A stretch of 57,042 nucleotides of DNA from Parcubacteria group bacterium LiPW_30 (GTDB lineage Bacteria > Patescibacteriota > Minisyncoccia > Phycocordibacterales > VMEP01). Under the pieces are notes generated by a model. That model was not told the origin of the DNA. It saw nothing but the letters and a program-made list of their open reading frames with translations, and ran no database searches. The first letter of the stretch is position 1, and every line of letters starts with the position of its first letter. The stretch spans positions 623,089 to 680,130 of the forward strand of contig VMEP01000001.1 in the NCBI GenBank assembly GCA_007375595.1. Direction: 5' to 3'. Shown here one piece after another: positions 3,515-14,826 of this stretch. The position numbers and the translations under genes are program-made.

Positions 3515-4114
3515 CTACTTGCCGGAAACAGGGACACCGGAAAGAAACCAGCCATCGTGCCAGACGCAGTCGTCGCGGTCGCAGAGCACGCTCCGCTTGC
3601 TGAACCAGCGGCTGAACGCCAGGCAGCAATTGTTGCCCCACTGTGTGCCGTTCGGATGCTCGTCGGCAAAGGCCGGGTCGGCTTCGTTCACGGCAGCTTG
3701 GGCGCGCGGGTCCGACACGAGGCCGTATTGCGCGAGAAACGCTGGGACCTCTTTCGCCGGCACGAAGCGCCTGGTCGGGATGAAATACACGTCAACTTCG
3801 TCACCTTCACCTTGCGGCATTGAGGCAACTGTGTCGTCGCTCAAGTACTTGTTGCGGCCCGTGGCGTTGATCGCTTCCATCGGCGTGCGAGTGCGGTCGA
3901 CGCGGACGCGACGGACGATGATGTCGTTCTGCGCTTCGACGTGCTTGCGGAAAACCGCGACCATCTCATCGAAAGCCATATTCCCTGGCATCTTGAGAAC
4001 GTTCTGCACTGCTTCGAGCGGAAGGCCGGACTCGCGAAGTTTCGTCGCGAGTCGGTCATTAATCTGGCCGATTTGGCCGCCAGTGATGGACTGGGTCCTG
4101 ACAGATGTTGTCAT
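3515..4114 (-). CDS. hypothetical protein with a DGR variable-region-like (CLec-type) C-terminus, target candidate 1
   Basis: AAGGA 7 nt before ATG 4114 (MTTSVRTQ); C-terminus CCLAFSRWFSKRSVLCDRDDCVWHDGWFLSGV is encoded largely by NNC codons; GC-richer than its neighbours. Confidence 0.7.
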   Translation of the reverse strand: MTTSVRTQSITGGQIGQINDRLATKLRESGLPLEAVQNVLKMPGNMAFDEMVAVFRKHVEAQNDIIVRRVRVDRTRTPMEAINATGRNKYLSDDTVASMPQGEGDEVDVYFIPTRRFVPAKEVPAFLAQYGLVSDPRAQAAVNEADPAFADEHPNGTQWGNNCCLAFSRWFSKRSVLCDRDDCVWHDGWFLSGVPVSGK

Positions 4115-4210
4115 TGCGTTATCCTTTTCCGTTGCGCTGTACGACTCGACCCGAACGGGTTTCGCCACAGCAGAGAAGGGCCTATATGCTATAAGCCATT
4201 TTCTGCTATG
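4115..4210 (-). promoter_or_regulatory. conserved structured 5' leader, copy 1
   Basis: Plus strand cgctgtacgactcgacccgaacgggtttcgccacagcagagaa (4135-4177) aligns with 14838-14882. Confidence 0.65.
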
Positions 4211-4298
4211 ACGAACACATGCTAAAAATTAAAGAACTATCCTAGTATAAAAACATATGTTTGTAGTAAAGTCAATAATACGTAATATTAAAAATAAC

Positions 4299-4331
4299 AA
4301 AAAAGCTGTCCTTTTTAGGACAGCTTTTTTT
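4299..4331. terminator. rpsP terminator (bidirectional shape)
   Basis: aaaaagctgtcct-tttt-aggacagcttttt perfect inverted repeat. Confidence 0.8.
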
Positions 4332-4348
4332 AGATAGAAAATTTAAAA

Positions 4349-4822
4349 TTATGCAGCTGGTGCTTCTTCTACAGGAGCTTCAGCAACTGCCTCAGCTGGA
4401 GTTTCTGCTACCACCTCAACTGGTGCTTCAGCCGGAGCCTCTTCTACTACCGGTACTTCAGCAGGGATTTCTTCAGGAGCAGGAGTTGCAACTGGTGCTG
4501 GTGCAGGTGTTGCAGGAGCTTCTACTTTAGCTGGTTCATCTTTTTTAATAGGGCTCTTTTTAGGCAAAACGTTTATTTTCTTCCCAGCAATAATTTTTTT
4601 CTCAACTAGGAAATTATGCATTGTGTCTGAAGGCAAAGCTCCGTGTGACATCCAGTGTAAAACACGGTCAGCCTTAATAACGAAGTTCCCGAGCTTAGGT
4701 TCATAAGAACCGATGACCTCAACGAAGTTACCCGTCTTTGGGCTTTCGCGGTGATCAACAACAACCACGCGGAAGTGCGGGCTGTTCTTTCGTCCTATTC
4801 TTTGTAACCTAATTTTTAACAT
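4349..4822 (-). CDS. rpsP: 30S ribosomal protein S16 with an Ala/Pro/Glu-rich C-terminal tail
   Basis: MLKIRLQRIGRKNSPHFRVVVVDHR...EVIGSYEP; the true start is ATG 4822, not GTG 4876. Confidence 0.96.
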   Translation of the reverse strand: MLKIRLQRIGRKNSPHFRVVVVDHRESPKTGNFVEVIGSYEPKLGNFVIKADRVLHWMSHGALPSDTMHNFLVEKKIIAGKKINVLPKKSPIKKDEPAKVEAPATPAPAPVATPAPEEIPAEVPVVEEAPAEAPVEVVAETPAEAVAEAPVEEAPAA

Positions 4823-4872
4823 GCAGGCAATACTAATAGAAATGGCCCGATAGGTCAAGTTTATGTCTCTGT

Positions 4873-4964
4873 GCACACACCACTAAAATACACGCGTAAA
4901 ATTCTGCTGAATTTTCGCTCTGCTCGCCTCGCCAGTCTGCGCAAGGTATTTTAGTGGTGTGTGC
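4873..4964. repeat. TGCT-loop structured repeat, copy A
   Basis: Perfect 19-bp inverted arms gcacacaccactaaaatac (4873-4891) / gtattttagtggtgtgtgc (4946-4964) around a 54-nt core with aaaattc-tgct-gaatttt. Confidence 0.85.
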
Positions 4965-4981
4965 GGAAAAATAAAATGCAT

Positions 4982-5146
4982 AAAACGCGCATAAAACTTT
5001 GCTAAGTTTTTGCTATGCTCGTGTCACGCATAATTTCTTGCTAGAAATTTGCGCGACCCCGACTCGGCTCGTCAGCCTCCGTCTCTCAATTGCTTCACTT
5101 ATCGCAATTGAGCGTCGCACTGCGCAATGTTTTTAAAAACAAAAGC
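4982..5146. repeat. TGCT-loop structured repeat, compound copy E
   Basis: aaaac-gcgcat-aaaactt-tgct-aagtttt-tgctatgctcg ... ctgcgcaat-gtttttaaaaacaaaagc, containing a second aatttct-tgct-agaaatt hairpin and ctcaattgc..gcaattgag. Confidence 0.7.
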
Positions 5147-5252
5147 AGGGACTAGATAAAGACAAGAATATCCTATCCAAGAGCACCCCGGTAGAGGCTC
5201 TAATCACCCAATCTAACCAATTTTAGCCACTTTTGTGTTATTATTTGAACCC

Positions 5253-13155: not shown

Positions 13156-13305
13156 CTAATCGCGTGAATCTACGTGTTCGCGAGCTATGAGAACGATTGC
13201 GACAAGGAACACCCCAGACAGAAGCACCCCTAGAAACACATCCGGGGAAAGAAAAGCGGAACCAACCGCAATGGCTATTGTCGCTACAATTTTTATCACT
13301 CGCAC
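13156..13305 (-). CDS. 49-aa two-TM small membrane protein (not in the ORF track)
   Basis: AGGAG then GTG 13305: [49 protein letters not shown]; own promoter and terminator. Confidence 0.7.
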
Positions 13306-13346
13306 CAAAATCTCCTAAAGATTGAAACAGTGAATTACTAATGCAA

Positions 13347-13375
13347 TTTATACCACTATTTAATAAGTACGTCAA
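13347..13375 (-). promoter_or_regulatory. sigma70-type promoter of the 49-aa gene
   Basis: TTGACG (13375-13370), N17, TG-extended TATAAA (13352-13347). Confidence 0.65.
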
Positions 13376-13401
13376 ACAGCAAAATTATAGTTTTTTTCTC
13401 T

Positions 13402-13521
13402 CACGACTATTATTACGCGATAGCGTAATAATAGTCGTGGGTATTTTTTAGCATAAATCCACCAAAAACTTATTTTTAATCGCCCACCTATAATTACGCG
13501 ACCGCGTAATTATAGGTGGGC
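13402..13521. repeat. pair of long perfect palindromes (REP-like)
   Basis: 17-bp stem at 13402-13418/13423-13439 and 19-bp stem at 13482-13500/13503-13521, sharing the core CTATWATTACGCGANNGCGTAATWATAG. Confidence 0.85.
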
Positions 13522-13532
13522 TTAATTTTTAT

Positions 13533-14159
13533 TTAAAACCTTAAAAAACTTCGGCGATGGATTTTGGTAATGCCATACTTTTTAATTGCCAAATAGTGAG
13601 CCTTAGTGCCATAACCCTTGTGCCTTTCAAAACCATATTGTGGAAACTTCTTGGCGAATCGCACCATTAATCGGTCGCGGGTTACCTTGGCAACAACCGA
13701 GGCAATGGAAATTATCTGCACCAAATCATCTCCATGGATTATAGTTTTTTGGTTTTTATATTCTTTAGGCGCCTTCAATCCCCCATCAAGAAATATCTGC
13801 GCATACTCTGGTTTAACCTTAAGATTTGAAAGAGATTTATCAAGCGCGCTTTGTATAGAAAAAACTATTCCCTTTTTATCAATAATTGTTGGAGCAGTAA
13901 AAGAAACAGAAAATTTTATATCGCCACGCATTTGCGCCAATTTTATTTTCTTAAACCACTCTCCTCTTTTTTTCTCTGAAAGTTTCTTTGAATCCCGTAT
14001 TCCTTTGAACTCTTTTTTTAGTCGAGAATTATATACGTCCGAATTTATGGCCACGGCACCAACAGCCACCGGCCCTGCCAACGGGCCACGCCCTACTTCA
14101 TCAATACCGATTATGTATTTCGGTTTTTTAATAGACTTTCTCACAAACCAATCATACAA
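13533..14159 (-). CDS. rnhB: ribonuclease HII
   Basis: IGIDEVGRGPLAGPV, DSKKL, ASVVAKVTRD, HKGYGT. Confidence 0.96.
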   Translation of the reverse strand: MYDWFVRKSIKKPKYIIGIDEVGRGPLAGPVAVGAVAINSDVYNSRLKKEFKGIRDSKKLSEKKRGEWFKKIKLAQMRGDIKFSVSFTAPTIIDKKGIVFSIQSALDKSLSNLKVKPEYAQIFLDGGLKAPKEYKNQKTIIHGDDLVQIISIASVVAKVTRDRLMVRFAKKFPQYGFERHKGYGTKAHYLAIKKYGITKIHRRSFLRF

Positions 14160-14182
14160 GGCGACTTAAAATAAAGCCAAAC

Positions 14183-14213
14183 AAAAAGTCCGTCGCTTGG
14201 GAAAGCGACGGAC
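14183..14213 (-). terminator. hairpin plus T-tract downstream of the putative DGR-target gene 2
   Basis: 11-bp stem gtccgtcgctt/aagcgacggac with a 4-nt loop, followed by T5 on the minus strand. Confidence 0.75.
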
Positions 14214-14259
14214 AAAGTTCAAAGGGTCTAAGAGTTCTAAGCCCTCAAGGACCTGGGCG

Positions 14260-14826
14260 CTAACTTGCGCGCAAAGCAGCAAGATTGTCATCAAGCCAGC
14301 CGTAGCCGAGCCAGTGGTAGTCCCAGTCCCACCTGTCGCCGTTCCAGCGGAGGCAACGGACGCACAGGTAGCCGTCAGAGTCGCGGTAAACCGTACCCCA
14401 GAAGAATATTGTTTTGCCTTTCCATTCCTCGGGAATGAGGTGTGGATTGGCGAGGAGGTAGTCGAGAACGTTGGCGTTCAAGACGGGCTTACCGGCAAGA
14501 TCTTTGCGGAGCCTGTTACCATCCATCGTCTTACCGTTCTGCTGGCCTTCAGCGAGGAAGAGCTGCACTTGTGCAGTGTCCCACTTGAACGGACCACCGT
14601 ACCGGTGCTCTTCGACTTTCCAGCCGTCGGGAATGAAGGGGTTGGCGTCACAGTCGATGATGTTGACAGGCACCCCAAGCTGTCCGAATTCTCCGTCATG
14701 GATACGCTGAAGCATTTCCATGACATCCTTAAACGACAACGACTTCCCTAGCCGGTCAGCAATCGCCATAGTCCTGCGGTAATACTGGCCAAGCTGATCG
14801 TCTTCAACACCCTTGTGGAGCGTCAT
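14260..14826 (-). CDS. hypothetical protein with a DGR variable-region-like (CLec-type) C-terminus, target candidate 2
   Basis: AGGAG at 14837-14833 before ATG 14826 (MTLHKG); C-terminus YLCVRCLRWNGDRWDWDYHWLGYGWLDDNLAALRAS has NNC codons at the variable-looking positions. Confidence 0.75.
   Translation of the reverse strand: MTLHKGVEDDQLGQYYRRTMAIADRLGKSLSFKDVMEMLQRIHDGEFGQLGVPVNIIDCDANPFIPDGWKVEEHRYGGPFKWDTAQVQLFLAEGQQNGKTMDGNRLRKDLAGKPVLNANVLDYLLANPHLIPEEWKGKTIFFWGTVYRDSDGYLCVRCLRWNGDRWDWDYHWLGYGWLDDNLAALRAS

Follow-up and report, generated by a model that had tools for sequence, protein, structure and literature searches.

Two stand-alone genes in a 57,042-nucleotide stretch of DNA from Parcubacteria group bacterium LiPW_30, a member of the Patescibacteria (candidate phyla radiation, CPR), raise the question of whether they are targets of a diversity-generating retroelement (DGR) and, if so, whether they are still being diversified. 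This stretch (hereafter the window; contig VMEP01000001.1, positions 623,089 to 680,130) makes up 57 kb of a contig of ~680 kb (680,130 bp). Both genes lie on its minus strand, gene 3515 at 3515-4114 (199 amino acids from the ATG at 4114, ~59% GC) and gene 14260 at 14260-14826 (188 amino acids from the ATG at 14826, ~53-55% GC). An examination of the letters alone (the sequence-only reading) had proposed that both proteins end in variable regions (VRs) of the DGR type, and that the genes look like remote DGR targets, with templates that may exist elsewhere. The Trp-anchored, NNC-rich codon strings that it quoted are present exactly as written, on the minus strand, in both genes. Judged by family membership, the C-terminal segments of both genes are genuine DGR VRs, and we consider it moderately probable that the two genes are stand-alone "orphan" copies from two unrelated Patescibacteria DGR families, with VRs that are now frozen.

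Two families of DGR targets

Homology searches recovered at least 1514 homologues of gene 14260 (family 1) and 404 of gene 3515 (family 2). All homologues in both families are unnamed proteins, and the records that do carry names are Patescibacteria metagenome-assembled genomes (MAGs). Neither window protein had a match in sequence searches of Pfam, NCBIfam, PHROG and the PDB, and no homology between the two families was detected by hhalign. The alignments of both families (A1 for family 1 and A2 for family 2) show a strongly conserved body followed by a C-terminal tail in which invariant Trp, Leu, Arg and Cys positions alternate with hypervariable columns.

When the two window genes are taken singly, the NNC bias is modest, with third-position C amounting to 0.55-0.60 in the tail versus 0.38-0.43 in the body. 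The signature far exceeds chance at the level of the families, where one can ask how often the tail uses the residues that NNC codons cannot encode (Lys, Glu, Gln, Met and Trp). These residues make up 0.4% of the 1568 residues in the hypervariable tail columns of family 1 versus 25.8% in variable body columns (120 members), and the corresponding values for family 2 are 9.0% in the tail versus 23.7% in variable body columns. The sequence-only reading had expected homologues to vary at the NNC positions, and this is what is seen in the 13 hypervariable columns that lie between invariant Trp, Leu and Arg positions in the last 48 residues of family 1.

The decisive evidence comes from the genomic surroundings of the relatives, for which 80 genomic loci (family 1) and 80 metagenomic loci (family 2) were fetched; these loci are given L-numbers below. 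In about half of the fetched loci of both families, a repeat of the VR (the template repeat, TR) is found 320-400 bp past the stop codon, with a size of ~123 nt in family 1 and 98-112 nt in family 2 (98-129 bp overall). A comparison of TR and VR, which covered 42 family-1 loci and ~38 family-2 loci, placed 653 of ~776 differences at TR adenines (A>N) in family 1 and 504 of 517 in family 2, and many loci are 100% A-specific. About 45% of the relatives have the target gene followed by a TR, an avd gene on the minus strand and a DGR reverse transcriptase (RT), in the order target(+), TR(+), avd(-), RT(+), and the identity of the relatives' RT and Avd was confirmed both by Pfam (RVT_1 and bAvd) and by tblastn. 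The downstream TR with A-specific differences, together with avd and RT, therefore identifies these as two bona fide DGR target families, and the assignment of the window genes' C-terminal segments as VRs is borne out by membership in them.

The VRs of the window genes can be delimited as the spans homologous to the family TRs, to which they align with most mismatches at A. For gene 3515 this span is 3519-3630 (minus strand), which aligns to the TRs of L083 (112 nt) and L162; 17 of the 26 mismatches to the L083 TR are at TR adenines. For gene 14260 the span is 14265-14387 (minus strand), defined by a 123-nt alignment to the TRs of L002, L021, L063 and L066. The two templates that had been guessed from the window letters (WNGNRWNWNYNWLDN and FNRWN..RNVN.NRND..WND.W) turn out to match real TRs closely, namely the family-1 TR consensus, which translates as ...WNDGRWNWNYNWLDNDWNDNN, and the TR of L083, which translates as ...FNRWNDERNVNCNRNDNDWNDNW.

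The family-typical ending ...GCAAGT(T)AG is present in both window VRs, and conservation extends over the first ~30 nt of the 3' flank. The 3' flank of gene 3515 (3442-3514, minus strand) consists of ~33 nt in common with relatives (TACTCGGGACTCAGTCACTCGGGTCTTTTGAAC) followed by an intrinsic terminator hairpin (3442-3481). The same terminator is also found after the family-1 gene in two other loci, L161 (a Logan contig) and L011 (from a sister species). In the 3' flank of gene 14260 (14183-14259, minus strand), CTTNG-type repeats with a weak hairpin are followed by an intrinsic terminator (14183-14213). The small 3' hairpin of cassette-linked relatives is weakened in gene 14260 and truncated in gene 3515; there is no functional definition of an initiation-of-mutagenic-homing (IMH) element for these families.

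Ten of the contigs that carry Patescibacteria-type targets (L017, L018, L023, L031, L036, L047, L048, L056, L072 and L079) are titled Gammaproteobacteria, Alphaproteobacteria, Methylocapsa or Micavibrio. These titles probably reflect mislabelling or misbinning of MAGs rather than true hosts.

AlphaFold models of the two proteins (pLDDT 81 and 85) have an N-terminal helical part and a C-terminal beta-rich domain. For both models the top Foldseek matches in the PDB are proteins with C-type-lectin-like domains (BDCA2, MCL, EMS16, rhodocetin and the C-terminal domain of Bd2740), with weak scores (E 0.1-0.3, TM to target 0.3-0.49), and a structural search of BFVD found nothing. The C-type-lectin fold anticipated by the sequence-only reading is weakly indicated by these predictions, and for both proteins it is plausible but unproven.

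Absence of the mutator from the window, and eroding cassettes

The sequence-only reading had also stated that the window holds no RT, Avd or TR, and three tests agree on this point. The blastn-short check that it had proposed for near-copies of the VRs was run within the 57-kb window and found no second copy of either VR there; a scan of the window for the YxDD motif of RTs gave a gyrase-like open reading frame (ORF) only; and tblastn of the window with the DGR RTs of two relatives and one Avd gave no match at E<=1e-3. Likewise, no TR, RT or Avd was found in the ~7 kb past the window's left edge in the sister-species locus L011. A database search with the RT of the closest relative yielded more than 8000 matches, with none on the window's contig among the 120 matches listed (>=69% identity), and is uninformative.

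Bare target genes prove to be common in both families. Among loci with >=2.5 kb of downstream sequence, the family-1 loci comprise 26 with a full cassette, 8 that are partial (TR only, or with RT/Avd stubs left) and 25 that are bare, and the family-2 loci comprise 13, 7 and 15, respectively. Thus, ~40-42% of the relatives are as bare as the window genes, and a further 15-20% have eroding cassettes. Every stage from full to bare is represented among the closest relatives of gene 3515, each of which has a different genomic neighbourhood: L162 (75% identity to gene 3515) has a full cassette, L083 (80% identity) has a TR and a 66-amino-acid RT remnant, and L165 (78% identity) is bare. In L083 (11387-11611), L025, L029, L101/L104 and L113, the RT and/or avd genes are cut down to short fragments, the target genes are otherwise intact and some of the TRs are intact as well. 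These loci are eroding DGR cassettes.

Frozen or diversifying variable regions

Two kinds of comparison speak to the present state of the VRs. In clusters of sequences with >=90% identity from independent assemblies, the VRs are identical in four family-1 sequences and in three family-2 sequences, with substitutions only outside the VR, and two further contigs also carry identical VRs. The VR variation among near-identical strains that would mark an active target is thus missing from these consensus assemblies.

The second comparison involves L161, a contig from a sister strain that matches the window at 99.7% identity across 3.2 kb on the KhpA-TrmD-RpoB side. Its rpsP-KhpA site is occupied by a family-1 gene, P0002, in place of the window's family-2 gene 3515. 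The bodies of P0002 and gene 14260 are ~85% identical and the N-terminus is unrelated, and the P0002 VR is nucleotide-identical to the 14260 VR over ~116 nt, followed by one mismatch and then 16 more identical nt. The block of identity (~14391-14258) is offset from the TR-homologous span (14387-14265) by <=4 nt at its 5' end and ~7 nt at its 3' end. Independent mutagenic homing could not generate such an identity, and it therefore argues for a shared copy event, after which neither VR has been re-diversified since the strain split. Together with the invariant clusters, this result favours the frozen state. A chimeric L161 contig is an unlikely cause of the VR identity, with both sides of the identical block running into rpsP-site context that is shared with L011. 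In another locus, L043, a stand-alone copy lies 7 kb from a full cassette and has no match to the TR of that cassette.

The explanation that we favour is that mutagenic retrohoming in an ancestor or donor gave rise to the VR sequences seen today, by the process in which, in the cassette-linked relatives, the TR rewrites the last ~100-125 nt of the gene by adenine-specific mutagenesis. The units may then have spread or been exchanged by recombination, with TR-avd-RT either lost by erosion or never transferred, and diversification of the VRs would have stopped in this lineage. The proteins would now be fixed-specificity binding proteins, with a probable C-type-lectin-like tip.

The sequence-only reading had instead supposed that the genes are remote targets. 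In its active form, this alternative holds that one or both genes are served by a DGR elsewhere in the ~680-kb genome, with one TR per family and cDNA homed in trans. We judge this to be unlikely, with several points in its favour. Non-adjacent targets are an established feature of DGRs (PMC5758913; PMC8144416), and a number of our own observations weigh against the frozen state. The search covered 57 kb of a ~680-kb contig, and an RT and one or two TRs may sit elsewhere. Both ORFs, their leaders with the hairpins described below, and the first ~30 nt of their 3' flanks are intact, as those of functional targets should be. The invariance of the VRs was seen in a few consensus assemblies, which possibly represent one population and in which minority variants are invisible. 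The syntenic stand-alone genes in L161 (P0002) and L011 are ~94% identical in the body and very different in their VRs, which argues that VR turnover does occur in stand-alone copies. Furthermore, L005 and L036 each have tandem two-target cassettes with two VRs matched by one TR, the mismatches being essentially A-only, and in L126 a single RT serves two TR/VR pairs of different families. The latter provides a precedent for the two differing templates that the sequence-only reading had called for. Together with the L011 VR divergence, these cassettes indicate that trans or multi-target action is possible in this group.

Stand-alone orthologue pairs seem at first to point in the same direction, with differences concentrated at TR-A columns: L069/L074 differ at 20 of 36 A columns versus 8 of 99 others, and L010/L070 at 20 of 36 versus 10 of 102. 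These pairs were rejected as proof of diversification in trans because their flanks are non-homologous, and each gene could be a snapshot of a different cassette-linked ancestor. Active remote targeting also has to contend with the absence of TR, RT and Avd from the window and from the adjoining sister-species DNA, with the identity of VRs among distinct near-identical strains, and with the identity of the 14260 and P0002 VRs in spite of ~15% divergence in the body. In addition, comparison with cassette-linked relatives shows the 3' flank of gene 3515 cut short after ~33 nt, and a 2017 survey found a tendency among CPR DGRs towards a single target, with remote (>100 kb) targets confined to another lineage (PMC5758913). 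The part of the original proposal that holds is therefore the assignment to DGR target families; with no TR found in the window, no RT found there or among the database matches listed, invariant VRs and a 14260 VR equal to that of a paralogue, active remote action does not share that support.

The organization of the compound DGR in L126 (2143-6519; also found in L125 and L129) is worth describing. A family-2 target and its TR-A are followed by a second leader hairpin, a target of a third family with its TR-B, avd on the minus strand and the single RT. The third-family target has its VR at 4572-4695 and TR-B at 5090-5211, with 17 of 17 substitutions at A.

A shared promoter, leader box and hairpin

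Upstream of both window genes and of most relatives, whether cassette-linked or bare, there is a sigma70-like promoter, a AGTTCTTTGATA box and a ~55-nt hairpin, with the 3' end of the hairpin ~50 nt ahead of the start codon. For gene 3515, a promoter-like TTGACT...TATACT followed by the leader box ATAGTTCTTTAAT can be read at 4228-4275 (minus strand), and an alignment of this leader with nine relatives shows a conserved TTGACA / TATAAT-like pair along with the AGTTCTTTGATA box. The hairpin of gene 3515 (4155-4218, minus strand), ~50 nt upstream of the ATG, is recognized by covariance model R1 with 64.6 bits (E 1.7e-14) in the sense direction versus 49.6 in the antisense direction. Both genes are intact ORFs for which ATG 4114 and ATG 14826 are the likely starts; alternative GTG starts at 4168 (gene 3515) and 14874 (gene 14260) would extend the proteins into the conserved 5' leader.

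The hairpin shows covariation. It has 20 pairs, with 96% of the alignment cells paired, and ten of the pairs are changed on both sides, versus 4.4 +/- 1.1 in shuffled alignments (0 of 500 shuffles reach ten) and <=6 in slid controls. Many of the pairs are G-U, and the covariance model scores the sense strand better by 15-25 bits. The location downstream of a promoter and ~50 nt before the start codon, along with the sense-favouring G-U pairs, fits an RNA structure in the 5' untranslated region (UTR), and the hairpin is a candidate regulator of variable-protein expression. The hairpin of gene 14260 (14866-14954, minus strand; arms TTTCACCACAGCGAGAAA and TTTCTCGCTGTGGTGAAA, as read from the sequence) is divergent: compared with the consensus, each arm lacks one base in a paired deletion and the apical region is enlarged to ~50 nt, a large insertion that causes model R1 to miss it.

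When 1.8 Mb of loci were scanned with the model, the hairpin matches that were checked sit just upstream of target-type genes. The hairpin is common to at least four target families, at least two of them beyond families 1 and 2 (L125 6274-6906, L096 1318-1926 and the third-family target of L126). A search of the window and of a full cassette against Rfam 15 gave no match to the hairpin or to an RT motif. The L096 gene (1318-1926) and the L125 gene (6274-6906, minus strand) are further hairpin-led genes with other Trp-rich C-termini, and the former has a family-1-type N-terminus (RQSAELDHAFERNGWT...) joined to another kind of C-terminal domain, a combination that suggests shuffling of domains between target families.

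Compact units and their probable exchange between sites

Several features set the target genes apart from their surroundings. They have ~58% GC regardless of the GC content of the flanks (flank medians 47-48%), and the gene exceeds its flank in GC content in 61 of 65 loci in one set and in 38 of 38 in the other. Near-identical genes occur in unrelated flanks, and the segment that they share extends from ~60 nt upstream of the hairpin to 80-95 nt beyond the stop codon. Each of the two window genes lies on such a compact GC-rich unit, which comprises its own sigma70-like promoter, the leader box, the covarying ~55-nt hairpin, the ORF including the C-terminal VR, and a 3' flank of 30-90 nt.

Two sites in the window illustrate the varied occupancy by these units. 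At the dnaE-rnhB site, the island that holds gene 14260 (14131-15059, delimited by synteny blast and by the sequences of both sites in the window and L011) measures 929 bp, versus 74 bp between the same genes in the sister species. At the rpsP-KhpA site, a family-2 gene in the window is replaced by a family-1 gene in both L161 and L011, and the left homology stops 6 nt past the hairpin. Arrays with the order hairpin-ORF-hairpin-ORF are found in L125, L096 and L005.

One way to interpret these arrangements is that CPR DGR variable-protein genes in general are modular mobile cassettes that are exchanged between loci and genomes, that VR-sized patches are copied from paralogue to paralogue, and that the shared hairpin, as a new cis-element, controls or mobilises every one of the target families. 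We regard this broad interpretation as distinctly unlikely. If it were true, there would be a VR-to-VR transfer route, retrohoming-like or guided by the hairpin and IMH, besides classical mutagenic homing from TR to VR.

Likewise distinctly unlikely, in our estimation, is a more specific scenario in which the units are actively mobile, dispersal being primary and the loss of diversification incidental. The hairpin would serve as a DNA recombination site (attC-like or Y1/HUH-like), or the DGR machinery would itself move VR-sized patches. The near-identical units in unrelated flanks, the swap of families at rpsP-KhpA between strains and the hairpin-ORF arrays are all expected from such mobility, as is the close match between the 14260/P0002 identity block and the TR-homologous span. 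The empty dnaE-rnhB site of L011 (203-276) also contains a sequence, GTTTGCCCATTATAGCAGAGGCAAG, that resembles a fusion of the hairpin's 5' arm with the end of its 3' arm. This resemblance, which falls below the significance threshold of model R1, could reflect a scar or an attachment-like sequence. However, no recombinase or transposase was linked to the units, and neither the window nor the inspected loci showed an integrase. An integron attC site is an imperfect palindrome at the 3' end of an ORF that lacks a promoter; the hairpin, in contrast, lies on the 5' side of the ORF, after a promoter that belongs to the unit, and its G-U pairs favour a sense RNA, as would fit a 5'-UTR element. The idea that stand-alone units are mRNA retrocopies made by a DGR RT was rejected, because the shared unit includes the promoter. 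Finally, ordinary homologous recombination via the conserved ends would explain both the swaps and the patches.

There is practically no chance that a conserved Trp-rich domain without any relation to DGRs accounts for the Trp-anchored NNC pattern: the modest third-position bias of the single sequences and the lack of a curated family would allow it, but it is refuted by the dozens of relatives with an adjacent TR (A-only mismatches), Avd and RT, and by hypervariable columns nearly free of Lys, Glu, Gln, Met and Trp.

Relation to known systems

The DGRs of CPR bacteria have been described as "DGR clade 2" by Roux et al. 2021 (PMC8144416) and by Wu et al. 2018 (PMC5758913) as a "CPR set" that includes the unclassified VR classes UVR1-6. 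CPR DGRs with small domain-less targets are thus established, as are non-adjacent targets of DGRs. The window genes resemble the known CPR targets in being small cellular proteins with a C-terminal VR and with no transmembrane segment or recognisable domain. Their relatives likewise have an RVT_1-type RT with bAvd, A-specific mismatches, and CPR hosts from groundwater or sediment. The difference is that the window has target genes only, without TR, Avd or RT. We found no description of bare copies, of an erosion series or of a shared 5' leader in the published surveys of CPR DGRs (PMC8144416, PMC5758913), nor, in the CPR DGR literature examined, of the high frequency of bare and eroding loci, cassette-like units, VR-precise identity of paralogues or a common leader hairpin. 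DGR surveys start from the RT, and bare target genes are therefore invisible to them.

Remote DGR targets, as in Treponema denticola and Legionella (PMC5758913), are similar to the window genes in lying away from any RT and in including several paralogous or unrelated targets per genome. By the criteria of Wu et al. 2018 (PMC5758913), a gene counts as a remote target if it belongs to no other DGR and its VR departs from a TR elsewhere in the same genome by A-to-N changes alone. In the present case, the comparison with TRs of the same genome is limited to the 57-kb window, and the invariant VRs of the window genes point the other way.

In the C-type-lectin-fold variable proteins Mtd of Bordetella phage BPP-1, Treponema TvpA and Thermus TaqVP, as in the window proteins, a C-terminal VR sets variable residues within a scaffold of invariant aromatic (Trp) positions. 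C-type-lectin-like domains are also the nearest structural matches of the two AlphaFold models, with the weak scores noted above (E 0.1-0.3). Unlike these proteins, the window proteins have no sequence similarity to any solved structure, and their two families are not detectably homologous. With regard to the leader, Weinberg et al. 2017 (PMC5737381) described RT-associated RNA motifs, including RT-10 in the BPP-1 DGR, in which a structured element is similarly tied to retroelement loci, and also the attC-like DUF1874 motif; the motif-ORF-motif-ORF order of the window genes' relatives recalls cassette arrays. The leader hairpin differs from both in having no Rfam 15 match and no associated integrase.

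If the orphans are fixed-specificity leftovers, then any tally of "DGR-diversified" proteins in CPR bacteria should be accompanied by one of frozen variants. The erosion series provides a natural history of DGR death. If the orphans are instead served in trans, remote targeting in CPR bacteria would be much commoner than reported. With at least four unrelated target families sharing it, the leader hairpin could be used to find targets without reference to an RT.

Other features of the window

The window is of Patescibacteria type, with ~40% GC and with housekeeping genes that include rpsP, RNase R, SMC, RNase III, NusB, L32, RNase HII and DnaE. Its GC profile shows an AT-rich background broken up by GC-rich single-gene islands, and BLASTP comparisons among the island proteins gave noise only. 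A third GC-rich (~51%) stand-alone gene, encoding 221 amino acids at 10335-11000 (minus strand), lies between SMC and RNase III with its own promoter, ribosome-binding site and terminator. It has no match in Pfam, NCBIfam or PHROG, and it was rejected as a third DGR target, having no leader hairpin and no VR-like tail and being present in the sister species L011. Its retention in L011 marks it as resident, not as an island of recent arrival.

A stretch of ~200 bp (3228-3428) that separates the gene 3515 terminator from the KhpA promoter is missing from L161. It includes a GC-rich 50-mer, cctgccagcgtgtacgcgcaggcgggcggagcgcgacggcgcgag, and does not resemble TR, avd or RT. At the right end of the window (46669-57036, minus strand) are genes for three very large secreted or surface-type proteins of 466, 1018 and 1982 amino acids. 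These proteins have FG-GAP/VCBS-like "GDLNGDGKADLAV" repeats and Thr-rich tails, and their genes are the source of the rise in GC content there.

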